The notes beneath the pieces are model-generated. The model made no database searches and was not told where the DNA came from. It saw only the letters and a list, made by a program, of their open reading frames with translations. Of a stretch of 64,000 bases of DNA, positions 25,843 to 62,250 are shown piece by piece. A program made the position numbers and the translations under genes. The stretch's first letter is position 1; every line of letters begins with the position of its first letter. The stretch lies in the NCBI RefSeq assembly GCF_055900595.2, contig NZ_CM148325.1; one strand, written 5' to 3'.

Positions 25843-26568
25843 GTGAAATTTATGAAAAAGGCTAAAATACTTTCTGGCGTATTATTACTGTGCTTTTCGT
25901 CACCATTAATTTCTCAAGCTGCGACACTGGACGTACGTGGTGGATATCGTAGTGGAAGCCACGCCTATGAGACTCGACTCAAAGTCAGTGAGGGATGGCA
26001 AAATGGATGGTGGGCAAGCATGGAAAGTAATACCTGGAATACCATTCATGATAATAAAAAGGAAAATGCCGCACTCAATGATGTTCAGGTTGAAGTTAAT
26101 TACGCGATTAAACTTGATGATCAATGGACGGTGCGCCCGGGAATGTTAACGCATTTTAGCAGCAACGGCACACGCTACGGACCCTACGTAAAACTGTCCT
26201 GGGACGCGACAAAAGATCTTAATTTTGGCATTCGCTATCGTTACGACTGGAAAGCTTACCGACAACAAGACTTATCCGGTGAGATGTCTCGTGATAACGT
26301 TCATCGTTGGGATGGATATGTCACTTACCATATTAATAGTGATTTCACCTTCGCATGGCAAACGACGCTATACAGCAAACAAAACGATTATCGCTATGCA
26401 AACCATAAGAAATGGGCGACGGAAAATGCATTTGTTCTACAATACCATATGACGCCTGATATTACGCCATACATAGAATATGACTACCTTGACCGTCAGG
26501 GTGTTTATAACGGCAGAGATAATTTATCAGAAAACAGTTATCGCATTGGTGTGTCATTTAAACTGTAG
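25843..26568 (+). CDS. nanC: N-acetylneuraminic acid outer membrane channel (KdgM family porin)
   Basis: Signal peptide MKKAKILSGVLLLCFSSPLISQA then beta-barrel-like sequence ending in aromatic residue pattern (RIGVSFKL); start may be 25852. Confidence 0.8.
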   Translation: MKFMKKAKILSGVLLLCFSSPLISQAATLDVRGGYRSGSHAYETRLKVSEGWQNGWWASMESNTWNTIHDNKKENAALNDVQVEVNYAIKLDDQWTVRPGMLTHFSSNGTRYGPYVKLSWDATKDLNFGIRYRYDWKAYRQQDLSGEMSRDNVHRWDGYVTYHINSDFTFAWQTTLYSKQNDYRYANHKKWATENAFVLQYHMTPDITPYIEYDYLDRQGVYNGRDNLSENSYRIGVSFKL

Positions 26569-26587
26569 TAGACAGGAGACAGTCACA

Positions 26588-27694
26588 ATGAATAAAACAA
26601 TAACGGCGCTTGCTATCATGATGGCTTCATTTGCCGCAAACGCGTCTGTATTACCGGAAACTCCGGTGCCATTTAAAAGTGGTACCGGAGCAATTGATAA
26701 CGACACTGTCTACATTGGTTTAGGTAGCGCAGGTACGGCATGGTACAAGCTGGATACACAGGCCAAAGATAAAAAATGGACAGCGTTAGCTGCATTCCCT
26801 GGTGGGGCGAGAGATCAAGCAACCTCTGCATTTATTGATGGCAATCTGTACGTATTTGGCGGCATTGGCAAAAACAGCGAAGGCTTGACTCAGGTATTTA
26901 ATGACGTACACAAATACAACCCCAAAACCAATAGCTGGGTTAAATTGATGTCGCACGCGCCGATGGGCATGGCGGGCCATGTGACTTTTGTACACAACGG
27001 CAAGGCTTATGTTACTGGCGGTGTTAACCAAAATATCTTTAATGGCTATTTTGAAGATCTCAACGAAGCTGGAAAAGATTCAACCGCTATAGAGAAAATC
27101 AACGCCCACTATTTTGACAAAAAAGCAGAAGATTATTTCTTCAATAAGTTTCTGTTGTCTTTTGATCCCTCTACACAGCAATGGAGTTACGCTGGCGAAT
27201 CTCCCTGGTACGGGACGGCTGGTGCAGCGGTTGTGAATAAAGGCGATAAAACCTGGCTTATTAATGGTGAAGCCAAACCAGGACTACGAACGGATGCCGT
27301 ATTTGAACTTGATTTCACCGGTAATAATTTAAAATGGAATAAACTTGCTCCCGTCTCATCACCAGATGGCGTTGCTGGCGGTTTTGCGGGGATAAGCAAT
27401 GACTCACTTATATTTGCCGGAGGGGCCGGATTCAAAGGTTCACGAGAAAATTACCAGAACGGTAAGAACTATGCGCATGAAGGCCTGAAAAAATCATATA
27501 GCACTGATATTCATCTTTGGCATAACGGGAAATGGGATAAATCGGGCGAATTGTCGCAAGGTCGGGCCTACGGAGTATCATTGCCCTGGAATAATAGTCT
27601 ATTGATTATTGGCGGTGAAACTGCAGGCGGCAAAGCGGTAACGGATTCAGTATTGATCTCTGTGAAGGATAATAAAGTCACAGTGCAAAACTAA
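26588..27694 (+). CDS. nanM: N-acetylneuraminate epimerase/mutarotase (Kelch-repeat protein YjhT)
   Basis: Start at MNKTITALAIMMASFAANA (signal peptide) with RBS GGAGA upstream; 368 aa; nanC-nanM-nanS order. Confidence 0.8.
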   Translation: MNKTITALAIMMASFAANASVLPETPVPFKSGTGAIDNDTVYIGLGSAGTAWYKLDTQAKDKKWTALAAFPGGARDQATSAFIDGNLYVFGGIGKNSEGLTQVFNDVHKYNPKTNSWVKLMSHAPMGMAGHVTFVHNGKAYVTGGVNQNIFNGYFEDLNEAGKDSTAIEKINAHYFDKKAEDYFFNKFLLSFDPSTQQWSYAGESPWYGTAGAAVVNKGDKTWLINGEAKPGLRTDAVFELDFTGNNLKWNKLAPVSSPDGVAGGFAGISNDSLIFAGGAGFKGSRENYQNGKNYAHEGLKKSYSTDIHLWHNGKWDKSGELSQGRAYGVSLPWNNSLLIIGGETAGGKAVTDSVLISVKDNKVTVQN

Positions 27695-27731
27695 CGCTTC
27701 AGGGCCCCAGTAAAGGGGCTCTGCTATCAAT

Positions 27732-28559
27732 TTGCCATTTCAATTACGCGAAAATTATATGAACGCAATAATATCGCCCGATTATTACTATGTTCTTACC
27801 GTTGCCGGTCAGTCTAATGCCATGGCGTATGGCGAAGGACTGCCATTACCGGACAGGGAAGATGCGCCTCATCCCAAAATTAAACAATTAGCGAGATTCG
27901 CGCATACGCATCCCGGAGGCCCCTCATGTCACTTTAACGACATTATTCCACTAACTCACTGCCCACACGATGTTCAGGATATGCAGGGTTATCACCATCC
28001 TCTGGCAACGAATCATCAAACACAGTACGGCACCGTTGGCCAGGCACTGCATATTGCACGGAAATTACTGCCCTTTATTCCTGATAATGCAGGGGTTCTC
28101 ATCGTTCCGTGTTGCCGTGGCGGATCGGCTTTTACCGCGGGCAGCGAAGGGACATATTCAGAACGGCACGGAGCCAGCCATGATGCTTGTCGTTGGGGAA
28201 CGGATACTCCGCTATACCAGGATTTAGTCAGCAGAACGCGAGCCGCACTGGCAAAAAATCCGCAGAACAAATTCCTCGGCGTATGCTGGATGCAAGGCGA
28301 ATTTGACTTAATGGCCAGTGACTACGCGTTACACCCTCAACACTTTAATCATATGGTTAAAGCCTTTCGTAGGGATCTAAAACAATACCATTCTCAGCTT
28401 AATAAAATTACTGACGCGCCGTGGTTTTGCGGCGATACCACCTGGTACTGGAAAGAAAATTTCCCTCATGCGTATGAAGCTATTTATGGCAATTATCAAA
28501 ATAATGTTTTAGCCAATATTATTTTCGTCGACTTCCAGCAACAAGGTGAAGAGGACTGA
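27732..28559 (+). CDS. nanS: Sialate 9-O-acetylesterase-like SGNH hydrolase (YjhS/NanS); reading frame ends prematurely relative to a conserved C-terminal tail present in the +2 frame (28550-28738)
   Basis: SGNH-type motif VAGQSNAMAY near the N-terminus; the peptide RGLTNAPDEDPDDLSTGYFGSAYRSAENWTT...FWRER is encoded in a different frame right after the stop, suggesting a 1-bp indel in a short A-run at ~28548-28552. Confidence 0.7.
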   Translation: MPFQLRENYMNAIISPDYYYVLTVAGQSNAMAYGEGLPLPDREDAPHPKIKQLARFAHTHPGGPSCHFNDIIPLTHCPHDVQDMQGYHHPLATNHQTQYGTVGQALHIARKLLPFIPDNAGVLIVPCCRGGSAFTAGSEGTYSERHGASHDACRWGTDTPLYQDLVSRTRAALAKNPQNKFLGVCWMQGEFDLMASDYALHPQHFNHMVKAFRRDLKQYHSQLNKITDAPWFCGDTTWYWKENFPHAYEAIYGNYQNNVLANIIFVDFQQQGEED

Positions 28560-28791
28560 CGAACGCGCCTGATGAAGATCCAGACGATTTAAGCACGGGA
28601 TATTTCGGCTCAGCGTACCGGTCAGCGGAGAACTGGACGACGTCACTGCGAAGCAGTCATTTCAGCGCGGCAGCCCGTCGGGGGATTATTTCTGACAGGT
28701 TTGTAGAAGCAATTTTGCAGTTTTGGCGCGAAAGGTGAGCGTTCATTAATTTGATTTATTCGCATCCATCAACGCTTTTAACTGCTCCGGC

Positions 28792-29270
28792 GTGCGGCAC
28801 TATAATGGTTTTCACAACAAGGAGCCATTTTCTTATACCACTTTCAGAGACCATCCGCTTATGCCACCGCCCTCTACGCAACTGTTTGCAGAGCACCTTC
28901 CCACCGAGTGGATACAGCACCTCCTGACGCTTTCTGCTCATGCGACCATTTGTCGTCTTAACCTGAGCGCGGATGGCGAAGCGGGGATTAGCCTGCTGGC
29001 CCGCAGCGCTGTCACCCAGGAGCGCCAGCGCGTGGGGGCCCCCTGGTGGAATGGCTCTTCCGCCAGACCGCACAGACATGGGGCGCGGAACGTTACCTGA
29101 AGGATGACTGGCACGGCCTGCAACTTTTTGCCATTGATGGCGCACAGTTCAGGACACCTATGAACCTGAGTTGCGTGAATATTATGGCTCTGCCAACACA
29201 TCCACTGAGCGGCAGAGCGCCTACCCGGTCATGCGTCTGGTGGCGTTAATGAATCTGGGAATCACATTCG
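28792..29270 (+). pseudogene. Fragmented DDE-transposase-like remnant (IS element relic) at the left edge of the accessory island
   Basis: Three short consecutive ORFs in different frames (…LFAIDGAQFRTP…, …YPVMRLVALMNLGITFG) consistent with a frameshifted transposase fragment; family not determinable by eye. Confidence 0.35.
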
Positions 29271-29712
29271 GCTGAATGCCATGACCGCGGCCTACCGGCG
29301 GAGCGATACAGCGTGAGGCAACTAAAGCGGCGTCAGAAATCAGCTTTAAGTTCGCATTCCTGTTTATCGTGACAGAAATGATAGTGCAGGGAAATACGGC
29401 GTCACCAGGAACCATCCCGAAACGGCTGGAGCATCTGCGGGGTGCTCTGGAAGCGGTGTTCCCACGACTATCAAGGCCGAGGGCTGTTAAGGTATCAAAA
29501 ACCCGTTATCCGGTGAAACACAGTGCTGCCCCGCTTAAGTGACGGCATTGTGTTTCTGACTGGCCTTAACTTTCCCTGAATCTCTGACGATCCTCACCAT
29601 TGATATTTTCTTCATTCCTCACCAGAGAAATAAAAAATCACTATACTCATCAAAATATGATGATTACCTTTATTCAGGTGATCACCTTACTATTTTATAC
29701 GGAAAATAAATC

Positions 29713-30363
29713 ATGAATATCCGTCAATCATTACATGACCGAATCTATGCAGAATACCCTCAACAGGCTAAAGATATATTACTGTATTTCCCCACTTATG
29801 AAATTATGCCATCGACCATAAAAATGGTTATGATTAATGAGGTGGTAGCTATAACACCGCAAGAAGATTTTTATACACCAGAGTCTGGTTATTTTACGAC
29901 TGTCGCCCGACAGTTAGCGCTGGCTGGATTATCGGCAAGTAGTGGCGAAGTCTTACTCAACCATGGTATCTACCTGACCTCCGCACTGAAACTACCTAAA
30001 ACACAGATCACAGCCACACCCGCGGAGATCATTCTCTGGTCACCTATTGTAGAATGGGAGCTCGAACTCTTTGCCAATATAAAAGTTATTTTCGTTGGCG
30101 GCGATATCGCGCGAAAATGCCTTAACATCATCGCGAAAAAGCAAACACGTAAACATGCCATCCCTTCAACTCCGACGTACAAACTGATGAATAGCGAATT
30201 AGTCTGGAAAGGAATAAGCATACTTCCTGGATATATTCTTACCGGAAAAAACCTGCTCATTGAAAAGTCAAAAATCGAAATGAATGTCGAACAATTAAGA
30301 AAAGGAATTGCGATTTATCGCAATAGTAACAGTAACCATACGAATAATTCAGTTCATGAATAA
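29713..30363 (+). CDS. Hypothetical protein (216 aa), orphan gene in AT-rich DNA at island edge
   Basis: Uninterrupted ORF with plausible start context; no motif I can confidently assign. Confidence 0.45.
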   Translation: MNIRQSLHDRIYAEYPQQAKDILLYFPTYEIMPSTIKMVMINEVVAITPQEDFYTPESGYFTTVARQLALAGLSASSGEVLLNHGIYLTSALKLPKTQITATPAEIILWSPIVEWELELFANIKVIFVGGDIARKCLNIIAKKQTRKHAIPSTPTYKLMNSELVWKGISILPGYILTGKNLLIEKSKIEMNVEQLRKGIAIYRNSNSNHTNNSVHE

Positions 30364-30876
30364 GAGATGAATCATTAATAACAAGAAATCACTGACAAAC
30401 CACCTGTAAAAGGTCAATCATTTTAGTTCAATTTCCTTTGTCATGATTATATTTTTATCGTCCTGACGATACTATTAACAATTACAATATTTATACCCTC
30501 CCCTGAACAAACAGAAAAGAACTCATACATTCGTTTATAATTCTGGTAATCCTGGCATCATACGTTTAAAATTTAAGGTGTTTGTTTTATAATCATGGTT
30601 CCAAAGACTATTGGTCACCAGAAAATGCCAGCCTTTTCGTGCCAGCTATATTTGTCCAGTGTGTTACCCCATCCAAAAATCATCCACATCCTGATGTTAC
30701 GTTAGATATAGAGAAAACAGGTTGTACTGTGCAATATGCTAACCGCATAAGCGAATATAATTTCTAAGCTGATATTGTCTGGCTGTTGGGAGCTAAACAA
30801 TATAAATATCGCCAGTTGCCAGAACGGTTATATAGACCAGGAGCGTTTCGGCTCCTGGTCTGTTTCGGACATATTA

Positions 30877-32991
30877 TCAATCAGCCACTAATAGCGGACT
30901 AGGGATACCAGATGATGAAACAAACAGCCCTTTTACGGCACGGGTTGCAGCCACATGCAGTAACGCGCGCTCATTAAATAATGCATCACGCTGTTCAACG
31001 GGATCATCGGATGCTAATGCTTTTATTTCCGGCACAACGCCTTCGTTAATCCCCACCAGGAACACATACTGGAACTCAAGCCCTTTAATACGGTGCATCG
31101 TTGCAACTCGCACGCCTGGGCGTGCATCGCTGTCACCGCTATCATTGCCTAAATTAAATGTCTCAATTCCGGCGTCATTGAGTGCTGATGCGTAGCGGTC
31201 GCAAGCATGTTTAGTACGCGCAGTAATGCAGATATCCTGAGAACGAACCTGATTCGCCAGCAATGCCTGAATTTGCTTGACGAGCGTTGCAGCCTCTTCT
31301 TTGAAATCTGCCGCATGCGTAATCATGGGCTTTTCCCCGTGCAGTAATGACAAATAATCATTACTGGTATCCGCTTCGCCATCGAGGTTATCAACCTTCA
31401 CACCAGTTAACAGCCCAACAGCAAATTGACGCGTCTCTTCTGTGGTCCGATAGTTAATCTTCAATTTTTTACTGCGACGACCACGGACGTTAATACCACA
31501 CTGACCAAGAACGACCTTATTGCGATAAATACGCTGATGCCCATCCCCGACAATAAACAGATCGTTGGGCGACTCGGGAACCAGGCTGCGAATAAGAGTA
31601 AATGCCGGGGCACCGATATCTTGAGCTTCATCGACGACAATACTGCTATAAGGTAGTTGGACCTGCTTTTCTTTAAACAGAACAATAGCCTCATGCATGG
31701 CATCGCCCATTTCGCGCAGTTTGGCACGCGCCATTTGTGCTCTGAATTCTTCGAAAACTGGCCAGATTTTCGCCCGTTGAATACGGGATAACGCTGTACC
31801 ACGTCCAACCCGGCTGACTTTGAGGTATTCCTCCCGGGTGTAAACCGCATTTGGCTGGACAACGCGTTGCCACTCTTCAGCATAGAAATTGTCAGGTAGC
31901 CCCAGTTCGGCAGGTGCCTGCTGCAAGGCATAGTTCCAGCATTTACGTCGCCCTTCATCGCTGTCGTATACCACGCGGAAATCATAACCGTGGCGTTTTA
32001 GTTGGTCGCTCATCCAGGCATCAATGTTAACGACGTCAATACGCGCCATCTCTTCTCGCGTACACAACCGCTGGAGATTAGCGCGAATATCTGCCGCCAG
32101 GTTACGCGTAAAGGTCGTGAAAAGTACCTTCTTACCGGGTTTATCTACCAGACGCTGAGATAACCACCGCGCACGGTGCATTGCAACAACCGTTTTCCCT
32201 GTACCTGCACCGCCCAGTACTCGTACCGGACCATTAGCGGGCGACTCCACCAGTTTTCGCTGGCTCGGGTGCAGAAATACACGCCATTTTTCTAAAGGCG
32301 CATTAAGCATCTGCAATAGTTCCTGTTCATTTTCAACGACATGGAAGCGACGTTTACTTCGTTCAATCGCCTCCATAAAGTCGTTGGTATCAACAGGCTC
32401 ATCACGATGATCGTTAAACTCTTCCAGCACTTCCTGGTAATCCAGCCCTTCTGCCAGCCAGTGCAGAGGTTCCCAGGCTTCTGCTGGCATTATGCTTTCA
32501 AGTTGATTAAGCCCGGCTTCATCGGTAAGCGCCATCACCTGATCAATAAAGACAGGCGGCACACCCAGGGCCAGAATCTGTTCCGCGCTGTAAGCTGCGA
32601 AGAGTTTCGGTTTATCAACCACCGTTTCCGCTGCCGGTTTGATATAGCTAATATCAATGACCTGAATCGCGCCAGTAACCGGGTGAATCGAACAATCATG
32701 CCGCCGCGCCCAGTCATATGCTTCGTCGTGTTTATCCACCCACATCAGCATATACAGAGCACCCTGTTCAGGTTTCAGAACAATGCCGCGATAAGTTTGA
32801 TCGATTCGCACCGAATGGACATTTTTACTGCGCGCATCGTGGATCTTTTCATAGTTAAGTCCATTACTGGTCGGGTCCTGACGGAATTTGGAGATGAATT
32901 CCTGCACCTTTTTTTGCTGTGCTTTTGGGATCCGCGCGAATGCGCCCAGAAAACCATCAGAAAGTGCCACCTTGGGCGTTTGCACCGTCAT
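30877..32991 (-). CDS. UvrD/PcrA-like superfamily 1 helicase with ~230-aa N-terminal extension (YjhR-like); last gene of the DISARM-like operon
   Basis: Walker A VLGGAGTGKTVVAMHRA, Walker B IVVDEAQDI, C-terminal UvrD_C-like motif ATMHRIKGLEFQYVFLVG; start overlaps upstream stop (ATGA at 32988-32991). Confidence 0.8.
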   Translation of the reverse strand: MTVQTPKVALSDGFLGAFARIPKAQQKKVQEFISKFRQDPTSNGLNYEKIHDARSKNVHSVRIDQTYRGIVLKPEQGALYMLMWVDKHDEAYDWARRHDCSIHPVTGAIQVIDISYIKPAAETVVDKPKLFAAYSAEQILALGVPPVFIDQVMALTDEAGLNQLESIMPAEAWEPLHWLAEGLDYQEVLEEFNDHRDEPVDTNDFMEAIERSKRRFHVVENEQELLQMLNAPLEKWRVFLHPSQRKLVESPANGPVRVLGGAGTGKTVVAMHRARWLSQRLVDKPGKKVLFTTFTRNLAADIRANLQRLCTREEMARIDVVNIDAWMSDQLKRHGYDFRVVYDSDEGRRKCWNYALQQAPAELGLPDNFYAEEWQRVVQPNAVYTREEYLKVSRVGRGTALSRIQRAKIWPVFEEFRAQMARAKLREMGDAMHEAIVLFKEKQVQLPYSSIVVDEAQDIGAPAFTLIRSLVPESPNDLFIVGDGHQRIYRNKVVLGQCGINVRGRRSKKLKINYRTTEETRQFAVGLLTGVKVDNLDGEADTSNDYLSLLHGEKPMITHAADFKEEAATLVKQIQALLANQVRSQDICITARTKHACDRYASALNDAGIETFNLGNDSGDSDARPGVRVATMHRIKGLEFQYVFLVGINEGVVPEIKALASDDPVEQRDALFNERALLHVAATRAVKGLFVSSSGIPSPLLVAD

Positions 32992-35900
32992 TTGTCACCT
33001 CCGGACAGATGTTGCAATGTAATTTCGTCAATTGGCCCGAATGCAACGTGCCAACCCCTGGTTGTGAATAATGGAATAAATTCTTGATTATCAATAATCA
33101 ATGCCCATTTTTGTGATGGCCAGGCGAGATCGGCTTCCGCAATAATTTCACCTTCATCATTTTGCAATTCGTAGCCGAGAGTCGGCGCAGAGAGAGAATG
33201 AGACTGAAGCAACGCGATCTCTTCAGCGCTTAATAAGCCAAACTCAATAATCTCAGCCCAACTTTCATCAGTCTCTGGTACTGCCTCTGGCGTTGCCGTA
33301 ACTTTAACGTCAACGCTTTCCTGCGGTAAATGCACGGCTTTACGGCTGGTAAAGGTCATATCCGGCAGGAACTGTAACAGGTTTACCAGTCGCCAGAAGC
33401 CATTGAGTCCCGCTTCATAACCGTCATCCTGCGTATAGCGATCGTCAAAACAGATATGCAAACGCAGCCAGCTGCGCATTTGTGCGACACTGGTCGTCGG
33501 TTTAATGGCTTGTTGTGGCAACACCGAAGCCAGCTCAATAAATTGCTGCGATGAGTTACAGCTATCGAGTAAACCACCAAAGACAAACGGTTCGTCTGGC
33601 AAAAGCTCTGCTAGCCGCCAGGCTGGCGCGTTTTCCTGCATTTCATAGGCATACTTTTGTTTCGTTCCCGCGTCCTGTGACTTCTTCACATCCAACCACA
33701 CCCAGGCATGTGCAGCAGCCATTCTCTGCCATAACTGCGTTCTTCCGCCCGGATCGGCGAGATAATCCAGCAGCAGTGCAAAACTGTTGCGTTCCCGGAA
33801 CGACGCTTCAAGGGCCGCAAAGTTGGTATCGTGAAACAGGTTATAAAACTTAGGCTGTTTCATATCCGGGTTATGCCCAAGCCCCAGGACATCCTGAACA
33901 TGTTTAAGCCCAGGCTCTTTGAGATCGGCCCACGTGACTGTCCACACCCAGAAATTATCGCTATCCCGAATCGCCTGGCGTTTTTGCACATCCTCTGCGA
34001 CGCTATTTTTGTGAAACGCAAAGCCATCAAGGAAAATAGCTACCGGTTTAATGGCATCAGACTGCATAAGCGGATATAGCACGTAATCCGGGCGACAAGG
34101 GATCCCCACTGCCTCTTTAGCGCCTAAATCCACCTGAGCTTTAAGATGCCAGCTCATCATCGGTTCGCTGCGGGTGTTAATAATCCACCCAGCGCCCTGA
34201 TGCGCGTAACTGCGACTGACAATCAGGTTTTTATTTTCTTGCAGGCAGCTAATAAACCGTTTTTCCAGCTCACTGCCCATCATGGCTTCGAGGGAAATGT
34301 TTTTGATGGAATCAATTACCCGTATCGAATCTCTTGCCTGCAAAATTTTCGCCAGCAAGAGACGCGCCTGATCGCGGGAGACATACTTCATGCGCCCACG
34401 GTCACGGTAAGCGTAAACGCAACGATAACAACCATCTTTATGCGTATCATGGTTGCAACTGCATTCCACTATCGCCTGATAGGCCAGTTCAAGTAATTTC
34501 AGCAAATTGTCGGGAGTGCGCATCAGCTCTTTAAGAGAACCAGTCCCCCCCGGGACGGTATCGTAAATCACCAGATACTGCCGCCAGGATTCGCCTTCAT
34601 TTTCCGGCTCGCGGTACACAACGCCTTTCAGGTGATCGACATTCCCCTTGAAGTAATGTTTAAGGCCGAGCTGGATCGCCGCCCCAAGAGAAGCCTCCAC
34701 GACACGGTCATTACTGTAACTGCTTACCGGGAGCAGAATTCGCAACGCTTCTGACTCCAGCTGGCGATAGAGATAGAGATAATCTTCGAACTTCGCCTTT
34801 TCCGGTTCCGTGCGATATTTGCAGCTCAAATCATGACGTGGTTCATGATCGCGAGGACGCTGTACCATGCCGCACCCCAGGCAAACTTTAAACCCGGTTC
34901 GCTTCTTCGCTTCTCCGGCAATCATCAACTCATTGGCATCATCCGCCATTTTGCCGAAGTTGATATCCCGCAGGGTGACTTTGCTTAAAAATTCAAAACC
35001 AAACGGAACTTCGCCTTCCTCAATCGCGTATGCCGCCGATACATCTTCTTTTTCGAAACTAACCAATAGCTGACGCTGGAAGAAAGCAGGTTCACGGCTG
35101 TCGCTCTCGTCGCTGATCTGGCTATCACGTGCGCTGGCGCGGGCATACACCTGGCGAAGTTTCAGCAGCGTGGTTTTTTGTCCGGCGTCGGCCCACCCCG
35201 GTGTGCCACATTTCGGGCAATATTTATGCTGGTCGCCCGTCTGGTCGATATTTTCGCTGTAGTTACAGTGGCTACAGATACGCCAGTTCTCCGGCTCAGA
35301 GACCTTCAGGTCTATCTGCTCAATTTCAACTTTATGCCCACCGGCATAGAAATTATTCAGCGGAGCCAGCTCAGCCAGCGCCGTTGATGCCGGGCGTTCA
35401 TATTCGAAAGTGGTGTTTTGATATTCACGCGCTTCCCCGCCTTCTTTACGCCGCCAGAGCACAGAACGTAACGTAATACCGGCTTCCGGAAAGGCGTAGT
35501 TAGGCAGCAGACCTTCATCCGTGAGGAAATTCAGCGTCTGCTTATTGTTGATTTGATTGACTAGCGCCATCAGCGCCTGCCGTTCTGAAGTTAACTCGCG
35601 CATATCGCTGTCAAAGTTTTGATCGCGCGGCGCGTTCTCCAGCTTATCGATACTGCGCTTGAGTTTATCGATGCGTGAACGCAGAGATTTGCGATCTTCC
35701 ACCAGCAGTTTTAACGCCTCTTCGATACGCTGCACCAGAGAGCGTTGTCCTGGCGCGCCCTGAAGATAAGACAACAACTGTTGGCGAGTTTCTGCGGCAA
35801 GATCGGGGAAGATCGCCGTAAATTGTGCAGCAATCTCCGCATGATGCTGTTCGATATATCTCAGTAAGTTATACGGAAAACCCGATTTACGCCCGAACTC

Positions 35901-38900
35901 CAGCTCATCCAGCATCTGTTTGACGTTTTTACAGATAGCGGATTCTGGTACACCGGTTTTCACCCAGTTATCCATACAAAAAGCTGCCAGCTGGCGTTCG
36001 AGAATAGCCGTTGCATTGAGGAAGACGCCAGGAGCCTGCACCTGGCCCTGCATCATCTCCAGCGGTTCTTCAAAGAAAAACTGATCGTGCGGGTTCCCTT
36101 CTGCCACGGTAATGTTTAACGCGTTACCATCTTTACGACCGGCGCGACCAATACGCTGCAAGTAGTTGGCCTGAGCAGGTGGGACAGAACAGAGTAAAAC
36201 GGTGGAAAGATCCCCAACGTCAATACCCATCTCCAGCGTCGGTGTTGCCGACAACAGGTTGATATTCCACGGTTGGTTGCCGCGGTAGAACGATTTTTCG
36301 GTGGCTTCGCGATCTTCACGGCTAAGCAGCCCCGTGTGTTCTGCGCCCTGCACGCGCGCGATGTCCATGTTCTCCCAACGCCAGGTCGCCATATTGTCGA
36401 CTTCCTGGTAACGACCTTCACAACGTAAAGAGAGACAAGGCGCATTACGCCACTGCCAGCCTTGATCGGCCGGAGCCCGGACAACCTCACGGCAACATGA
36501 ACAATTAAGCTGAACGACGTCACGGCTCACCACCAGCGCAGAAGGCACCAGTCCCCAGGCTTCACGCCCTTTGGTGTCAAAATCTTTTACTACTCCGGCT
36601 ATTTTCAACGCCGTAAACAGGCGTCGTAACACTGTTTCCGCAACGCTACTGATAAACAGATTATTGCCGTTACTCAGCGTGCGATTGATCCAATGCTGAT
36701 ACCAACTGGGGTTAGACTTCGCGCCAATCAGGCGATGGAAACCATTAATTTTTTCAAACGACGCATAAGCCGGTTTACGCGTTTTCGGACCGATAGAAGG
36801 CATATAGCGCGAGGTACGCTCTTTTTGCGTCATCATAAAGGTCGTGCCATCACGGCGATAACTTTCGAACGTCGGATGCATAACGGCCCCGGCCTGGCGT
36901 TGATACCAAATAACCCCCAGCGCCAGGTGCGCGACCTGCTCGACGCTCACACCGGACATCTCATCACCCAGCTCTTCACAAAGCTGTTGATGCAGGGCGG
37001 TAATTGCCGGATTAAAGCGTTCTTTATCCACTCCGGCAACGGCATAACCGGTGGCTTCCAGCGTACGTCCGATACGCGCGCGCAGGGTAAATTCGCTGTA
37101 CACCTCCCAGTCGAGGCGCAGGGAAACCAGCTCCGGCAGATCGGAGTTCTCCGCCAGTTTGCCTTCATTTTTCAGTGTCTGATAATCATTCAGCCACTGC
37201 ATATTTGGTGCGATGAAGTTCGCTGCAAAATGAGCATCGTCCGGTGAACGTTCACGCGTTTGTTGGCAAACACGCGCCGCGAACGCATCCAGCGGTAATG
37301 TCTCTTTTTCGCCAAGAACACTGGCGATTTGCCCACGAATCATCAGCGGCCAGGTACGGGCAGTAAAGAAGCTGGCACGATGCGCGGCGTCTTGTACCGA
37401 GTCAGAAAACGTAATCAGCTTTTTATGTTCGTTGAACTGGCTGCCATAAAGCTGGTGAATCATCACCGCCGACAGACTGGCAGCCCGTGACCCCAGAATC
37501 GAAATCCCCTGTTTGCTGTTGCAGTACGGGCATTCATTAGCAAACTCCAGCTCGTCCTTACGCTCTTTGAGCATATCCGGGATCAGTACCTGCAACAGTT
37601 CCGTATGACCGCAATGTCCACACTGGACGCTGGACTGTCGGTTCAGTTTCAGACAGATAGGGCACAGTTTCTGGTGTGCGCCACTGACCGCTTTTTCGTT
37701 GTTATCCGGGAAAGCAAGGACGATGGAGCGCCCTTTTTCAAAGAACTGGCGATAAATGCCGTCGAGGTCTGTTTCCAGCTGAACGCTTTGCCCATGACGC
37801 AGGCTGGCCCAGCCGGTTGCGTGGCAGTCACGGCAGTGGATAACCGGCAAATAGTGTTCGCGATCTTCCACCGCCACATCATCGGCAAACACCAGTCTCG
37901 GCGTTTTCGCCACGCTGGCGACCAGACGACGCATCTCACGAAGCCACAACTGGGAACGCAGTTGCACAAACGGCAACACCGGGCGCGCTTTCTTCGCCTG
38001 GAGACGTTTTTGCCGATCGTGTTCCGTTTCCGGTACTTCGAGACGTGCCTGCGCGATCAGCGCCAGAATGCTTTGCAGCACGCGTCGGGCATGGTCGGCG
38101 CTTTCTGCCAGCATGACCTGGAGATTTTCCAGACACTCTCGTTCAGAGAGGATCCCGCCTTGCAGATCATGGAGTAAGACATGCATCACGCTGTGGCGGC
38201 GTAACAGTGACCCCAGCGCAATACGCTTTTCGCGCCCGTCGTCGCTCTCCAGATCGTCCGGGAGTTGCAAGTCGCTGTCGGAGAACCACAAAGGGATTTG
38301 TCCGTTGAGATACGCCACCGGGGTAGCGTAACTCTGCGGGTCCAGCGCCGAAGCGACCTCCGGCCCCGGATACTGACTGTACGCAATGGCGTAATCCTGC
38401 AAGTACTCCGCTGCCGTGTAGCGATCTTCGCGAATAACGGCGTCATCGGTAAACGGCTGGTCAAAGATTGTTTTTGCGTAATCGAGCAGTTGCCCCAGTT
38501 CGTCGCCGACGGTAGCTGATGTCCCGACGCAGGCGAATCGTTGGTTATCCACACCTATGTGATGCTTCAGACGTCGCACCAGACAGGCCAGATCCGACCC
38601 TTGCGCGCCATCAAACGTATGCAATTCATCCACGACCAGGTAACGCAATGAACCGGGCTGGTTGTAACGCCAGAGCGGCTGATCGCCAGGGCGCATCAGT
38701 AGGTAGTCGAGCATTTTGTAGTTGGTCAACAGGATGTCCGGCGGGCTTTCGCGCAGCGTGTGCTTACAGGTAATGACCTTTTCTGCCGACATTTTTTTGC
38801 TGGGTTCGATTTCGCTGTCGCCGACAAACAATCCGACGGTCACCTTGCCATGCAGTTGTGGATCGCTGGCGATGGTTTTGGCGAAACGGCTGGCCTGATC

Positions 38901-39329
38901 GGTTGCCAGGGCGTTCATCGGGTAGATGATAATTGCTTTAACCCCGGCTTGTGACGCGCCCGCGCAGTGGTTGAGCAGCGGGAACATAAAGCATTCTGTT
39001 TTACCGGAGCCGGTACCGGTAGCGACCAGTGTCGGCTGTGGCGCGTCGCATCCCAGACGCTGAAATGCCCGGGCCTGATGCGCGTGCGGCGGGAACGGCA
39101 GCGTCAGATTAGGGAAAAAATTCAGCGGTAAGTCACTTTTACGAAACGGCAACTGGGCGGAAAGGTATGGTCCTTTCAGCAGCGTTTCGGGCTGGGCCAG
39201 AAATTGCTCCAGCATTGAGACATTATCGTTATTCTCACCGTTAAACAGCGGGCTGTTTAGCGGGAACGCCGCCCGTAAAAAGGCGGCAACGCTGTCGGCG
39301 ACCTGCCGACTGACAACGGACGGCAACAT
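32988..39329 (-). CDS. Giant (2113 aa) DEAH-box helicase with C-terminal Cys-rich Zn-ribbon region (DUF1998/MrfA-like); fused DrmA+DrmB-type or DruE-like protein
   Basis: Motif I LVATGTGSGKTECFMFPLL, motif II YLVVDELHTF, motif VI QRIGRAGRKDG; Cys clusters CSHCNYSEN...CPKCG, CLGCGMV, CSCNHDTHKDGCYRC; start overlaps upstream stop by 1 nt (TGATG at 39327-39331). Confidence 0.8.
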   Translation of the reverse strand: MLPSVVSRQVADSVAAFLRAAFPLNSPLFNGENNDNVSMLEQFLAQPETLLKGPYLSAQLPFRKSDLPLNFFPNLTLPFPPHAHQARAFQRLGCDAPQPTLVATGTGSGKTECFMFPLLNHCAGASQAGVKAIIIYPMNALATDQASRFAKTIASDPQLHGKVTVGLFVGDSEIEPSKKMSAEKVITCKHTLRESPPDILLTNYKMLDYLLMRPGDQPLWRYNQPGSLRYLVVDELHTFDGAQGSDLACLVRRLKHHIGVDNQRFACVGTSATVGDELGQLLDYAKTIFDQPFTDDAVIREDRYTAAEYLQDYAIAYSQYPGPEVASALDPQSYATPVAYLNGQIPLWFSDSDLQLPDDLESDDGREKRIALGSLLRRHSVMHVLLHDLQGGILSERECLENLQVMLAESADHARRVLQSILALIAQARLEVPETEHDRQKRLQAKKARPVLPFVQLRSQLWLREMRRLVASVAKTPRLVFADDVAVEDREHYLPVIHCRDCHATGWASLRHGQSVQLETDLDGIYRQFFEKGRSIVLAFPDNNEKAVSGAHQKLCPICLKLNRQSSVQCGHCGHTELLQVLIPDMLKERKDELEFANECPYCNSKQGISILGSRAASLSAVMIHQLYGSQFNEHKKLITFSDSVQDAAHRASFFTARTWPLMIRGQIASVLGEKETLPLDAFAARVCQQTRERSPDDAHFAANFIAPNMQWLNDYQTLKNEGKLAENSDLPELVSLRLDWEVYSEFTLRARIGRTLEATGYAVAGVDKERFNPAITALHQQLCEELGDEMSGVSVEQVAHLALGVIWYQRQAGAVMHPTFESYRRDGTTFMMTQKERTSRYMPSIGPKTRKPAYASFEKINGFHRLIGAKSNPSWYQHWINRTLSNGNNLFISSVAETVLRRLFTALKIAGVVKDFDTKGREAWGLVPSALVVSRDVVQLNCSCCREVVRAPADQGWQWRNAPCLSLRCEGRYQEVDNMATWRWENMDIARVQGAEHTGLLSREDREATEKSFYRGNQPWNINLLSATPTLEMGIDVGDLSTVLLCSVPPAQANYLQRIGRAGRKDGNALNITVAEGNPHDQFFFEEPLEMMQGQVQAPGVFLNATAILERQLAAFCMDNWVKTGVPESAICKNVKQMLDELEFGRKSGFPYNLLRYIEQHHAEIAAQFTAIFPDLAAETRQQLLSYLQGAPGQRSLVQRIEEALKLLVEDRKSLRSRIDKLKRSIDKLENAPRDQNFDSDMRELTSERQALMALVNQINNKQTLNFLTDEGLLPNYAFPEAGITLRSVLWRRKEGGEAREYQNTTFEYERPASTALAELAPLNNFYAGGHKVEIEQIDLKVSEPENWRICSHCNYSENIDQTGDQHKYCPKCGTPGWADAGQKTTLLKLRQVYARASARDSQISDESDSREPAFFQRQLLVSFEKEDVSAAYAIEEGEVPFGFEFLSKVTLRDINFGKMADDANELMIAGEAKKRTGFKVCLGCGMVQRPRDHEPRHDLSCKYRTEPEKAKFEDYLYLYRQLESEALRILLPVSSYSNDRVVEASLGAAIQLGLKHYFKGNVDHLKGVVYREPENEGESWRQYLVIYDTVPGGTGSLKELMRTPDNLLKLLELAYQAIVECSCNHDTHKDGCYRCVYAYRDRGRMKYVSRDQARLLLAKILQARDSIRVIDSIKNISLEAMMGSELEKRFISCLQENKNLIVSRSYAHQGAGWIINTRSEPMMSWHLKAQVDLGAKEAVGIPCRPDYVLYPLMQSDAIKPVAIFLDGFAFHKNSVAEDVQKRQAIRDSDNFWVWTVTWADLKEPGLKHVQDVLGLGHNPDMKQPKFYNLFHDTNFAALEASFRERNSFALLLDYLADPGGRTQLWQRMAAAHAWVWLDVKKSQDAGTKQKYAYEMQENAPAWRLAELLPDEPFVFGGLLDSCNSSQQFIELASVLPQQAIKPTTSVAQMRSWLRLHICFDDRYTQDDGYEAGLNGFWRLVNLLQFLPDMTFTSRKAVHLPQESVDVKVTATPEAVPETDESWAEIIEFGLLSAEEIALLQSHSLSAPTLGYELQNDEGEIIAEADLAWPSQKWALIIDNQEFIPLFTTRGWHVAFGPIDEITLQHLSGGDK

Positions 39330-57220: not shown

Positions 57221-58873
57221 ATGTTAGCGCAGCTTTTTGAGCAGTTGTTTCAATCGATAGACTCTACACTGATCACCAATATTTTCATCTGGGCTGTTAT
57301 ATTCGTATTTTTATCAGCGTGGTGGTGTGACAAAAAAAATATACATAGTAAGTTTAGAGAATATGCTCCAACCTTAATGGGGGCATTAGGTATTCTGGGT
57401 ACTTTCATTGGTATTATTATTGGGTTACTCAATTTTAATACTGAAAGTATTGATACCAGCATCCCCGTATTATTAGGCGGCCTAAAAACAGCATTCATTA
57501 CAAGCATTGTAGGTATGTTTTTTGCCATTTTATTTAATGGAATGGATGCTTTCTTTTTTGCCAATAAACGAAGTGCGTTAGCAGAAAATAACCCTGAATC
57601 TGTTACACCTGAACATATCTATCATGAATTAAAAGAGCAGAACCAGACTCTGACTAAATTAGTCTCGGGTATTAACGGTGATAGTGAAGGTTCTCTTATT
57701 GCTCAAATAAAATTACTACGTACTGAGATTAGCGATTCCTCGCAGGCACAATTAGCTAATCACACTCATTTCAGTAATAAGCTTTGGGAACAACTTGAAC
57801 AATTTGCAGATCTAATGGCAAAAGGTGCTACAGAACAAATTATTGATGCTTTACGACAAGTCATTATTGATTTTAATGAAAATTTAACTGAACAGTTTGG
57901 TGAAAACTTTAAAGCACTTGATGCCTCTGTAAAAAAACTTGTTGAGTGGCAGGAAAATTATAAAACGCAAGTTGAGCTGATGTCAGAACAATATCAACAA
58001 AGTGTCGAGTCTCTGGTTGAAACAAAAACTGCGGTTGCCGGGATTTGGGAAGAATGTAAAGAAATTCCTCTGGCTATGTCTGAACTGCGTGAAGTGCTTC
58101 AGGTGAACCAACATCAAATCAGCGAACTCTCCCGCCATTTAGAAACCTTTGTCGCTATCCGCGATAAAGCTACAACCGTATTACCTGAAATACAGAACAA
58201 AATGGCTGAAGTGGGTGAACTGCTGAAATCCGGAGCTGCAAATGTTAGTGCATCTCTTGAGCAAACCAGCCAGCAAATACTTCTTAATGCAGATTCAATG
58301 CGCGTGGCCCTGGATGAAGGTACCGAAGGATTCAGACAATCGGTTACCCAAACACAACAAGCATTTGCCTCGATGGCACATGATGTCAGCAATTCCTCCG
58401 AAACTCTAACCAGCACGTTAGGTGAAACAATTACTGAAATGAAACAAAGTGGTGAAGAATTCCTGAAGTCACTAGAGTCGCACTCGAAAGAATTGCATAG
58501 AAATATGGAACAAAATACGACTAATGTAATTGATATGTTCAGTAAGACTGGTGAAAAGATTAACCATCAACTATCCAGTAATGCCGATAATATGTTTGAT
58601 TCAATCCAGACATCATTTGATAAGGCAAGTGCAGGGCTGACTTCTCAAGTCAGAGAATCAATTGAAAAATTTGCTCTATCCATCAACGAGCAGTTACATG
58701 CTTTTGAGCAAGCAACTGAACGTGAGATGAACCGTGAAATGCAATCATTAGGTAATGCTCTGCTTTCAATCAGCAAAGGTTTTGTCGGTAACTATGAAAA
58801 ACTTATTAAAGATTACCAAATAATTATGGGGCAGTTACAAGCATTAATTTCTGCTAATAAACATCGAGGGTAA
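57221..58873 (+). CDS. zorA: MotA/ExbB-like membrane protein with long C-terminal coiled-coil tail; Zorya ZorA-like
   Basis: N-terminal TM helices (LITNIFIWAVIFVFLSAWW, LMGALGILGTFIGIIIGLL, AFITSIVGMFFAILFNG) followed by ~400 aa of heptad-like Q/E/L-rich sequence. Confidence 0.75.
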   Translation: MLAQLFEQLFQSIDSTLITNIFIWAVIFVFLSAWWCDKKNIHSKFREYAPTLMGALGILGTFIGIIIGLLNFNTESIDTSIPVLLGGLKTAFITSIVGMFFAILFNGMDAFFFANKRSALAENNPESVTPEHIYHELKEQNQTLTKLVSGINGDSEGSLIAQIKLLRTEISDSSQAQLANHTHFSNKLWEQLEQFADLMAKGATEQIIDALRQVIIDFNENLTEQFGENFKALDASVKKLVEWQENYKTQVELMSEQYQQSVESLVETKTAVAGIWEECKEIPLAMSELREVLQVNQHQISELSRHLETFVAIRDKATTVLPEIQNKMAEVGELLKSGAANVSASLEQTSQQILLNADSMRVALDEGTEGFRQSVTQTQQAFASMAHDVSNSSETLTSTLGETITEMKQSGEEFLKSLESHSKELHRNMEQNTTNVIDMFSKTGEKINHQLSSNADNMFDSIQTSFDKASAGLTSQVRESIEKFALSINEQLHAFEQATEREMNREMQSLGNALLSISKGFVGNYEKLIKDYQIIMGQLQALISANKHRG

Positions 58874-58879
58874 TCGATC

Positions 58880-59587
58880 ATGGATAAGATTATAGGGAAA
58901 CAATTACCTAAAAAAGATCAAGATAATGAACACTGGGTATCCATGTCAGACCTAATGGCAGGGCTGATGATGGTTTTTATGTTCATATCTATTGCTTATA
59001 TGCACTACGTACGTATTGAAAAAGAAAAAATTAAAGAAGTTGCCGTAGCCTACGAGAATGCTCAGTTACAGCTTTATAATGCTCTGGATATTGAGTTTGC
59101 AAAGGATTTGCAAGACTGGGATGCAGAGATCGATAAGCAGACTCTGGAGGTTCGATTTAAATCACCGGATGTTTTATTTGGCTTAGGAAGCACAGAGCTT
59201 AAACCAAAGTTTAAACTCATTCTTGACGACTTCTTTCCTCGCTACCTAAAAGTTCTTGATAATTATCAAGAACATATTACTGAAGTCCGCATTGAAGGTC
59301 ACACAAGTACTGACTGGACTGGAACAACGAATCCTGATATTGCTTATTTTAATAATATGGCACTATCACAAGGTCGTACACGTGCAGTATTACAATACGT
59401 TTATGATATAAAAAATATCGCGACACACCAACAATGGGTTAAAAGTAAATTTGCCGCAGTAGGTTATTCATCTGCACATCCCATTCTTGATAAAACCGGC
59501 AAGGAGGATCCTAATCGCTCTCGTCGTGTCACCTTCAAAGTTGTAACAAATGCCGAGTTGCAGATTAGAAAGATTATTCAGGAGTAA
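58880..59587 (+). CDS. zorB: MotB-like protein with single TM helix and OmpA-type peptidoglycan-binding domain; Zorya ZorB-like
   Basis: TM segment MSDLMAGLMMVFMFISIAY, C-terminal OmpA-family motif (NMALSQGRTRAVLQYV); 6 bp after zorA stop. Confidence 0.75.
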   Translation: MDKIIGKQLPKKDQDNEHWVSMSDLMAGLMMVFMFISIAYMHYVRIEKEKIKEVAVAYENAQLQLYNALDIEFAKDLQDWDAEIDKQTLEVRFKSPDVLFGLGSTELKPKFKLILDDFFPRYLKVLDNYQEHITEVRIEGHTSTDWTGTTNPDIAYFNNMALSQGRTRAVLQYVYDIKNIATHQQWVKSKFAAVGYSSAHPILDKTGKEDPNRSRRVTFKVVTNAELQIRKIIQE

Positions 59588-59590
59588 GAG

Positions 59591-60694
59591 ATGAAATTAT
59601 CTATCGACATTTCAGAACTTATTCAATTAGGGAAGAAAATGTTACCAGAAGGAGTCGATTTTTTTCTGGATGAATCCCCTATTGACTTTGATCCTATAGA
59701 TATTGAGTTATCCACGGGTAAAGAAGTTAGTATCGAAGATCTTGACCCTGGTAGCGGGCTTATCTCTTATCATGGCCGCCAGGTTCTTTTATATATTAGG
59801 GACCATTCAGGGCGTTATGATGCGGCTATCATCGATGGCGAAAAAGGAAAACGTTTTCATATTGCCTGGTGCAGAACTCTTGATGAAATGCGCCATAAAA
59901 ATCGATTTGAAAGGTATCATGCAACTAACCGCATAGATGGTTTATTCGAAATTGATGATGGTTCAGGTCGGAGCCAGGATGTTGATTTACGGGTATGTAT
60001 GAATTGTCTGGAACGACTTAATTACAAAGGAAGTATTGATAAACAAAGGAAAAGAGAGATTTTTAAATCATTCTCATTAAATGAGTTTTTTTCAGATTAT
60101 AGTACCTGTTTTCGTCATATGCCTAAGGGTATCTATGACAAAACAAATAGTGGGTATGTCGAAAACTGGAAAGATATATCAAAATCAATACGAGAAAAGG
60201 CCAAGTATACTTGTAATGATTGTGGTGTGAATTTATCAACCGCCAAAAACTTGTGCCATGTCCATCATAAAAATGGCATCAAATATGATAATCACCATGA
60301 AAACCTTCTTGTTCTGTGTAAGGATTGCCATCGTAAACAGCCCCTCCATGAAGGTATATTCGTTACCCAAGCTGAGATGGCTATCATTCAACGTTTACGT
60401 TCCCAACAAGGGTTATTAAAAGCCGAATCCTGGAATGAAATATATGACCTGACTGATCCATCAGTACATGGTGATATTAATATGATGCAACATAAAGGCT
60501 TTCAACCTCCTGTTCCTGGGTTAGATCTTCAAAACTCAGAACATGAAATTATTGCAACCGTAGAAGCAGCATGGCCAGGCCTTAAAATTGCAGTTAACCT
60601 TACTCCCGCCGAAGTCGAAGGATGGAGAATATATACCGTGGGTGAGCTGGTTAAAGAAATACAAACAGGAGCCTTTACGTCAGCAACGTTGTAA
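59591..60694 (+). CDS. zorE: HNH endonuclease-domain protein; Zorya type II effector ZorE-like
   Basis: HNH motif CNDCGVNLSTAKNLCHVHHKNGIKYDNHHENLLVLCKDCH plus an upstream CMNCLERLNYKG Zn-ribbon; 3 bp after zorB stop. Confidence 0.75.
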   Translation: MKLSIDISELIQLGKKMLPEGVDFFLDESPIDFDPIDIELSTGKEVSIEDLDPGSGLISYHGRQVLLYIRDHSGRYDAAIIDGEKGKRFHIAWCRTLDEMRHKNRFERYHATNRIDGLFEIDDGSGRSQDVDLRVCMNCLERLNYKGSIDKQRKREIFKSFSLNEFFSDYSTCFRHMPKGIYDKTNSGYVENWKDISKSIREKAKYTCNDCGVNLSTAKNLCHVHHKNGIKYDNHHENLLVLCKDCHRKQPLHEGIFVTQAEMAIIQRLRSQQGLLKAESWNEIYDLTDPSVHGDINMMQHKGFQPPVPGLDLQNSEHEIIATVEAAWPGLKIAVNLTPAEVEGWRIYTVGELVKEIQTGAFTSATL

Positions 60695-60822: not shown

Positions 60823-60903
60823 CATATGCTATGGTTAGCCTTATATTTAAAACTTTCCTCATACGGGTGAAGGTTAAAGCTTGGTAGATAGGTTACAGTC
60901 ACA

Positions 60904-61513
60904 ATGAATAAAGCAATAACGGTGCTTGCTATAATGATGGCTTCATTTTCCGTAAATGCGTATGTATTACCGGAAACGCCTGTGCCATTTAAAAGTGGTA
61001 CCGGAGCAATTGATAACAACACTGTCTACATTGGTTTAGGTAGCGCAGGTACGGCATGGTACAAGCTGGAGAAACAGACCAAAGATAAAAAAATGGACAG
61101 CGTTAGCTGCATTTCCTGGTGGACCGAGAGATCAAGCAACTTCTGCATTTATTGATGGCAATCTGTATGTGTTTGACGGCATTGGCAAAAACAGTGAGGG
61201 CTTGACTCAGGTATTTAATGACGTTCACAAATACAACCTCAAAACCAATAGCTGGGTTAAATTGATGTCGCACGCGCCGATGGGCATGGCGGGTCATGTG
61301 ACATTTGTACACAACGGCAAGGCTTATGTTACTGGCGGTGTTAACCAGAATATCTTCAATGGCTATTTTGAAGATCTTAACGAAGCTGGAAAAGATTCAG
61401 CGTACCGGTCACCGGAGAACTGGACGACGGCACTGCGAAGCAGTCATTTCAGTCGGGGGATGATTGTAGACAAATTTGTTGACGCTATTTTGCGGTTTTG
61501 GCGTGAAGGGTGA
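60904..61513 (+). pseudogene. Degraded nanM paralogue fused to a nanS-like 3' tail (frameshifted nanM'-nanS' remnant)
   Basis: 60904-61399 aligns by eye to nanM 26588-27082 with substitutions and an extra A in a poly-A run (frameshift); at 61400 it switches to sequence matching the nanS 3' end (28614-28738), including a 12-bp deletion. Confidence 0.7.
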
Positions 61514-61520
61514 GCGTTCA

Positions 61521-62171
61521 TTAATTTGATTTATTCGCATCCATCAACGCTTTTAACTGCTCCGGCGAAAACGGTGGTTTGCGTCGGTGCAACATCGCAT
61601 GGCAATTAGGGCACACAGGAAGCAAATCATTAACTGGACCCAGCTGGTAATCCTCTTTAATGGCTGAAAGCGGGACCAGGTGATGCACATGGATAAAGCC
61701 TTCAGCGATATCACCATAGATCTTCACCAGATCAACGCCGCATACTTTGCACTGGCATCCATGATGTTCGACCGCTTTATCTCGGGCCTTTTTATCGCGT
61801 TCATAGCGGTTTACTGTCACTTTTATCGCCGCACCTTCAAGGTATGTCTCCTGCGACGGCAACTCATCCGGGAACAGAACGTCGGCTATGGGAGCCGCAG
61901 CGGCTTTATCCTGATGAATATGAAATCCCTGCTCTATGAGTAGTTTGACGCATTTAGATTTTATTCCGCCGGTGAAATCCGCAGGGGTAAATTGCGTCCC
62001 CGTCATCAATGTCGCTGCGATGCCAGCAATCGCCTTCGAGGGGTAACGTCGGCCATGATATTCAATCTCATACAACCGCGCAGGCTGGAACTGATGAGTT
62101 TCTCCCGCATCCCATAAATGGATAGCTTCGATGATATACCGCCGCGGAAGATGATCAGGGAGTTTATTCAT
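61521..62171 (-). CDS. HNH endonuclease-domain protein (216 aa) with N-terminal ~130-aa domain of unknown type
   Basis: C-terminal HNH/Zn-finger motif CQCKVCG...HVHHLVPLS...CPNCH; the last 40 bp of the gene are also present as a copy at 28744-28792. Confidence 0.65.
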   Translation of the reverse strand: MNKLPDHLPRRYIIEAIHLWDAGETHQFQPARLYEIEYHGRRYPSKAIAGIAATLMTGTQFTPADFTGGIKSKCVKLLIEQGFHIHQDKAAAAPIADVLFPDELPSQETYLEGAAIKVTVNRYERDKKARDKAVEHHGCQCKVCGVDLVKIYGDIAEGFIHVHHLVPLSAIKEDYQLGPVNDLLPVCPNCHAMLHRRKPPFSPEQLKALMDANKSN

Positions 62172-62250
62172 GGAGAATGTCCTTATACGTTCTCAGAACA
62201 GGCAGCAAAAAAACAAATGAGATCAAGGTAATATATCTTCACTTGCAGGC

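Follow-up and report, generated by a model that had tools for sequence, protein, structure and literature searches.

The DNA analysed here, a stretch of 64,000 nucleotides that we refer to as the window, is part of an Escherichia coli chromosome; in it, an island comes after uxu, gntP, fim and nanC-nanM-nanS. The coordinates of its features are collected in Table 1. The nanS ORF (27732-28559) carries a frameshift at about codon 265, near position 28550, and encodes 275 aa versus 326 aa in K-12; in a tblastn search with K-12 NanS, frame 1 accounted for aa 1-265 and frame 3 for aa 265-326. PGAP annotates nanS (sialate O-acetylesterase) as a pseudogene in several close relatives. Opposite the nanS tail, a 29-aa ORF on the minus strand (28657-28746) is the counterpart of YthB, a small protein of K-12 (in relatives, Pfam YthB is matched), and a second YthB-like ORF of 25 aa goes with the right-hand repeat described below. 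To the right of a transposase relic, which is the subject of this analysis, lies a multi-system anti-phage defence island of about 31-32 kb (29713-60694). No Pfam match was obtained for the 421-aa gene of which a C-terminal remnant is present near the left end of this island. When the four-gene module of DruE-like, type IIG methylase-like, SNF2-like and UvrD-like genes was compared with PADLOC, no single named system matched. The UvrD-like and DruE-like genes, which were the two module genes checked, are kept together across Enterobacterales.

Table 1. Coordinates of the relic, its lesions and its surroundings in the 64-kb window
Feature	Position	Strand	Remarks
nanS out-of-frame 3' tail	28550..28741	+	K-12 homology ends at 28741
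HNH endonuclease 3' fragment	28746..28793	-	15 codons plus stop, ...TPEQLKALMDANKSN*
IS4-family relic	28793..29550	+	Corresponds to reference IS 42/43-1430 of 1430 bp; left inverted repeat absent
Former transposase start codon	28835..28837	+	ATG>ATA, also in O157 copy
19-bp deletion (IS 91-109)	28839/28840		Also in O157
~87-bp deletion (IS ~219-305, aa 45-73)	~28950-28957		Also in O157
Three 1-bp deletions (frameshifts)	~29040, ~29159, ~29261		From alignment to intact IS
Segment encoding LQLFAIDGAQFRTP	29118..29159	+	First catalytic Asp of DDE triad (AIDG, reference aa 135-138)
~488-bp deletion (IS 663-1150, aa ~196-356)	29304/29305		Also in O157
21-bp deletion	~29322/3		Also in O157
12-bp deletion	~29460/1		From alignment to intact IS
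Right terminal inverted repeat CTTAAGTG-ACGGCATTG	29534..29550	+	17/18, 1-nt deletion
AT-rich spacer, relic to UDG-family gene	29551..29712	.	In E. coli only together with the relic
UDG-family protein	29713-30363		
61-aa ORF, C-terminal remnant of 421-aa gene	30582-30767		Intact gene beside UvrD-like gene in Escherichia sp. E1V33
UvrD/GajB-like helicase	30877-32991		
DruE-like protein, 2113 aa (helicase)	32988-39329		
Type IIG methylase-like (DrmMI-like), 1640 aa	39329-44251		
SNF2/DrmD-like helicase, 952 aa	44254-47112		
Druantia III DruE3, 2107 aa	47336-53659		
Druantia III DruH3, 1119 aa	53650-57009		
Zorya II zorA2, zorB2, zorE	57221-60694		Annotation in EC42405
Second diverged copy, nanS tail and HNH 3' end	61397..61567	+	Versus 28610-28792, 85.8%

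On either side of the island lies one copy of a diverged direct repeat. The 5' part of nanM (26568-27082) recurs at 60884-61399 with 93.6% identity, and the segment 28610-28792 recurs immediately after it, the similarity between these two copies ending at the left edge of the relic. The earlier note on this DNA had described the relic as lying directly after the nanS-tail repeat, and this is where it was found. In the right-hand repeat copy, the 3' part of nanM is missing along with most of nanS, and the sequence leads into an intact HNH endonuclease gene of 216 aa (61521-62171, minus strand), the product of which ends with ...SPEQLKALMDANKSN and carries the Pfam HNH and ScoMcrA_N domains. Beyond it lies a 309-aa ORF for a phosphorothioate-DNA-binding restriction endonuclease (NF045808), with which the HNH gene forms an intact pair (61521-63180). 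Only fragments of the HNH gene are present in K-12 and UTI89. The layout in strain EC4115 is the same, with more deletions. The diverged flanking repeats suggest either import together with donor flanks or an old duplication. No tRNA genes were detected in the 64-kb window (leuX lies beyond the window in strain EC42405), and an Rfam search matched no family and returned sub-threshold snoRNA noise only.

Between the nan region and the island, the segment 28751-29542 holds only short ORFs in shifting frames, from which the earlier note had proposed a decayed transposase relic at 28792-29420. Both peptides that it quoted were found, and their frames differ (LFAIDGAQFRTP in ORF 29046-29249, MRLVALMNLG in ORF 29171-29275). 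When the intact 445-aa transposase of plasmid pJNE21-009_1 was aligned to the window by tblastn, five collinear segments in three frames were obtained. Four of them (aa 10-104, 103-144, 146-178 and 178-195) reach a combined E of 1e-64, and the fifth (aa 357-445) an E of 3e-36. The relic ORF 28792-29100 matched Pfam Nterm_IS4 (E 1.5e-5, 25.6 bits, cut-off 25). These tblastn and Pfam matches are far above chance. For the plasmid-borne transposase itself, the NCBIfam model NF033592 (IS4 family) gives 259.6 bits at a cut-off of 115; this protein also matches Pfam Nterm_IS4 (1e-29) and DDE_Tnp_1 (1e-22), and contains the motifs AIDG (aa 135), LFDKL (aa 212) and YHSRWEIEVGFRNLK (aa 311), the last of which represents the Y-(2)-R-(3)-E-(6)-K signature.

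In a global alignment, the window sequence from 28793/4 to 29550 is a deletion derivative (~757 bp) of the 1430-bp IS4-family element, and its DNA identity to intact copies ranges from 80 to 95% (blastn blocks of 80%, 94-95% and 86-87%). A DNA search of complete E. coli genomes returned near-full-length relatives annotated as IS4 family transposase; the relic is labelled 'transposase, frameshifted' by RefSeq in close relatives, O157:H7 included, and the protein-cluster source names read 'IS4 family transposase' and nothing more specific. With a transposase that has the IS4 N-terminal domain, the relic belongs to the IS4 group of the IS4 family by descent, not as a functional member. The core claim of the earlier note therefore stands, the match to a transposase family being clear. 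The relic is moreover an ordinary, known feature, already annotated as a pseudogene across hundreds of RefSeq genomes. As to its extent, the relic reaches 29550, which is 130 bp further to the right than proposed. Of the terminal inverted repeats, which the earlier note could not find by eye, the left one is absent and the right one exists; the latter escaped notice because its position is beyond the interval then considered.

The anatomy of the relic was worked out from a global alignment to the intact pJNE21-009_1 IS and from a five-way alignment, and the reference inverted repeats and target duplications of 10-11 bp were defined on intact copies. The ~488-bp deletion takes out both the second Asp region (LFDKL) and the Y-R-E-K motif, and what remains of the complete D, D, E set with its Y-(2)-R-(3)-E-(6)-K signature is the first Asp region (AIDG) alone. 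Terminal inverted repeats of ~18 bp (CAATGCCG..TTAAG), which intact copies have at both ends, were found at the right end only. A MITE-like derivative that can be mobilised in trans keeps both transposase-binding ends; here, the left end is gone from the window-type as well as the O157-type relic. Out of four features by which a functional IS was judged, the relic lacks three (catalytic core, both repeats, target duplication). As a transposon it would be both non-functional and non-mobilisable.

The closest named relative of the relic is insZ (ISZ', ychG), located between adhE and tdk in K-12, the name of which was taken from the IS table of PMC3032704. It belongs to the same lineage, with 86.9% DNA identity over the shared parts, and both it and the window relic are internally deleted, frameshifted IS4-family pseudogenes annotated by PGAP. 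Unlike the window relic, K-12 insZ has kept both inverted repeats and a target duplication of ~10 bp; it also differs in its internal deletions, in its locus and in its spread (~2000 genomes versus ~446). The intact 1430-bp element, as present in pJNE21-009_1 and beside silE in KCTC 2571, is the parent type of the relic. The right inverted repeat and the N-terminus and C-terminus of the transposase are the same in both. What sets the intact element apart is an 18-bp repeat at each end, a target duplication of 10-11 bp, and an ORF of 445 aa in which D, D and Y-R-E-K are all present. In pJNE21-009_1 the two repeats read CAATGCCGATCAGTTAAGG and CTTAAGTGAACGGCATTG; the S24 peptidase gene interrupted by the element shows a target duplication of 10 bp. 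Intact copies of this IS family occur on ~160 plasmids, the majority being conjugative, so the family either is still active or has been so in the past. Canonical IS4 of K-12 (insG, 1426 bp) belongs to the same family and group, with Nterm_IS4 and DDE_Tnp_1 domains and a similar size, and the first 35 bp of its left end are 97% identical to those of the intact element. However, transposase identity to InsG is 38%, and the DNA is otherwise dissimilar except for one block of ~145 bp (69%), so that the element from which the relic derives is a different IS species.

At the left end of the relic, IS positions 1-42, including the left inverted repeat, are absent from the window according to the alignments to the intact IS, and the truncated end is joined to the last 48 nt of the HNH-endonuclease gene. 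The joint reads ...CTGCTCCGGCG-T-GCGGCACTATAA..., in which the T is the only nucleotide common to HNH and IS, amounting to a microhomology of 1 nt. Homology to K-12, covered by blastn over 27000-28741 at 96.8%, stops 52 bp before this joint, and homology to genomes of the UTI89 type stops at 28793. The latter are island-free and number ~2700 complete genomes; they keep 28560-28793 at 95-97%, followed by the HNH fragment on the minus strand, which runs 57 bp further past the position of the joint in the window. On this comparison, the boundary between shared DNA and island-specific DNA is located at 28793/4, the left edge of the relic, in agreement with the core/island junction suggested in the earlier note. 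The segment 28742-28792 shows weak similarity to IS 1-42 by eye and with MAFFT and was considered as a decayed left IS end; this was ruled out because the segment is HNH-gene sequence common to the ~2700 island-free genomes. A sigma-70-like site (TTAACT-17-TATAAT, 10/12) straddles the HNH'/IS joint at 28778-28806. Joints made by a transposase, as well as IS-adjacent deletions, end at the tip of the IS. The present joint is at IS 42/43, inside the element, and was therefore not made by the transposase.

Among 5426 complete E. coli genomes the flank 29551-29712 was not found without the relic, and there was no empty site; on plasmids this flank was not found, the hits stopping at the IS end and a few running ~8 nt past it. 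No target-site duplication of 10-13 bp surrounds the relic (GTTCATTAATT / HNH' and TGTTTCTGACTGG mismatch). One candidate was an 11-mer, TTTCTGACAGG / TTTCTGACTGG (at 28689 and 29553), which extends to 11 matches out of 13 (28687-28699 versus 29551-29563). It was rejected, as its left copy is 94 bp upstream of the joint, in the K-12-homologous nanS tail, with no IS end adjoining. We judged this likeness to be a chance match; several such repeats are expected per 1.1 kb. In blastn and tblastn searches with the intact IS, no second copy better than E 0.07 was detected in the whole 64-kb window, and a pattern search of the same window yielded no credible further copy of the inverted repeat. A composite transposon, or an island bounded by IS copies, has a second IS at its far end; here, the far end consists of nanM'/HNH.

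The relic is present in ~446 of the 5426 complete E. coli genomes, O157:H7 included, with the same joint and major deletions. Two groups can be distinguished, namely a window type (84 records, at least 95% identity) and an O157/O55/O145 type (364 records, 90-95% identity), the latter without the UDG-family gene. Among complete genomes, EC42405 comes nearest to the window (99.2% over 28560-29712), along with strains such as SMS-3-5. In O157:H7 EC4115, the relic occupies the same locus and has the same HNH'/IS joint, the ATA codon and the deletions of 19, 87, ~488 and 21 bp. One 1-bp deletion is common to the EC4115 and window relics; EC4115 has small indels of its own, and its right inverted repeat is perfect (18/18). 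These shared features show that the relic has a single origin, and the joint and the main lesions would predate the split between window-type and O157-type islands.

Of 703 former coding sites, 36 differ between the relic of the window and that of O157, with substitutions distributed over the codon positions as 7/10/19. This mild third-position excess (p=0.04) is not predicted by pure neutral drift after shared inactivation. At ~29035-29045, the window and the near-intact KCTC 2571 copy by silE have the same 1-bp deletion with an adjacent C>T (GGGGGCC-CCCTGG). Gene conversion from live IS copies may explain both the third-position excess and the KCTC 2571 lesion. In other respects too the islands of the O157/O55/O145 type have their own features: the UDG-family gene (29720-30366) is precisely missing, and there are larger deletions at the right-hand nanM'/HNH end. 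Between O157-type islands and the window, the relic and the noncoding flanks are 5-14% diverged and the helicase genes are ~98% identical.

Modules related to that of the window occur well beyond E. coli. In a scan of one genome per species, the UvrD-like gene was found again in Citrobacter, Siccibacter, Mangrovibacter, Enterobacter, Leclercia, Yersinia and Serratia (90-94% protein identity), in Aeromonas (75%) and in Escherichia sp. E1V33 (100%, best segment). In the latter strain, the module adjoins uxuA, with no fim or nan genes within 10 kb, and it is the only one among these loci with traces of the UDG-family gene. Within 10 kb of the UvrD-like gene, no IS4-like DNA or protein was detected at any of the 14 loci examined, E1V33 included. 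The relic is therefore peculiar to the nanS-linked arrangement of E. coli and not a general component of such islands.

Taken together, the relic is in all likelihood the remnant of an IS4-family element of the ISZ'/insZ lineage that was once located at the left edge of the island, was truncated by one joining in which transposase had no part, and then drifted to become the scar seen today. According to this explanation, an IS of ~1430 bp would have sat at the left edge of the present ~32-kb defence island. An illegitimate, non-transposase joining would then have removed its left 42 bp together with the left inverted repeat, and the same event would have fused IS 42/43 to the last 48 nt of the HNH gene downstream of nanS. 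This event may have been a deletion, or else an imported fragment may have been joined there by one of its ends, with homologous recombination at the other. The start codon would have been lost as well, and the ~488-bp deletion would have taken the second catalytic Asp and the Y-R-E-K motif. The joint and the shared lesions presumably arose once, before window-type and O157-type islands separated, and since then the relic would have drifted with lineage-specific indels, leaving a scar at the core/island boundary with no predicted transposon activity. The order of these events is our inference, and so is the view that a deletion, or else illegitimate end-joining of incoming DNA, produced the joint and that transposition did not; the event that created the joint is not reconstructible from present sequences.

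A more specific version of this explanation, which does not contradict it, is that the IS was a passenger at the end of an imported IS-island-nanM-nanS-HNH segment from a diverged Escherichia donor, integrated by homology-facilitated illegitimate recombination. The right-hand join would have been made by homology, on the side of the HNH and phosphorothioate-restriction genes, and the left-hand join illegitimately, between IS 43 and the resident HNH gene. Import with donor flanks would explain the truncated IS as well as the diverged right-hand nanM'/nanS-tail/HNH copy. It is consistent with the two diverged direct repeats that bracket the island, the right copy of which enters the intact HNH gene, with a right-hand nanM' that is ~6% away from every E. 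coli nanM sampled, with the different context of the module in E1V33, and with the minimal microhomology at the joint. On the other hand, the donor layout predicted by such an import (ZorE followed by intact nanM-nanS) was not found in 10 contexts and the sampled nanM rows, and a tandem duplication of old date, whose right-hand copy decayed neutrally, could have led to a comparable divergence. We consider import of the IS as a passenger to be plausible but not the outcome we would expect. That the truncated IS end is a preserved homology-facilitated illegitimate joint, marking the capture beside nanS of a ~32-kb island from a diverged donor with its own nanM-nanS-HNH flank, is rather doubtful.

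The earlier note had also raised the possibility that the IS mediated the acquisition or rearrangement of the island. In that case it would have acted as one end of a composite transposon, by homologous recombination between IS copies, or through an adjacent deletion, and the evidence would have been erased later. The relic does lie exactly at the boundary, it is never found apart from the left flank of the island in E. coli, and intact members of the family circulate on plasmids, which speaks for its present or past activity. Nevertheless, the joint is 42 bp inside the IS, the search for a target-site duplication found none flanking the relic, there is no second copy or lone repeat in the window, the far end of the island included, and no IS4-like sequence was detected near the related modules of nine other taxa. 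An active part of the IS is thus improbable. That it helped to acquire the island is unproven, and as regards the existing joint, a role of the transposase is contradicted by the joint's position; an earlier IS-mediated step that has since been erased, such as transposition into the island edge or IS-IS recombination, is possible. Finally, it is very hard to believe that the relic was co-opted, either as a hybrid promoter-like site (28778-28806) directed toward the UDG-family gene or as the source of an expressed short peptide, because, although the 10/12 match to the sigma-70 consensus spans the joint and its -10 hexamer owes its existence to a C>T change not present in intact IS copies, it is a consensus match only (10 such sites were found versus 4.9 expected in shuffles), the O157 copy keeps TATAAC, O157-type genomes are without the UDG gene, no ORF exceeds 102 aa, indels make the ORFs differ from one lineage to another, and no Rfam family matched.

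In itself, a dead IS of a known family matters little. As a remnant truncated by a non-transposase joining, however, the relic is a precise landmark that locates the left edge of the nanS-linked defence island with single-nucleotide precision (28793/4), and it ties the O157-type and window-type islands to one integration event. Since the joint was not made by transposase, the presence of an IS at the edge of an island is by itself no proof of IS-mediated acquisition. If the island was indeed captured by homology-facilitated illegitimate recombination, the locus would provide a natural, datable case of that integration route for an E. coli defence island.
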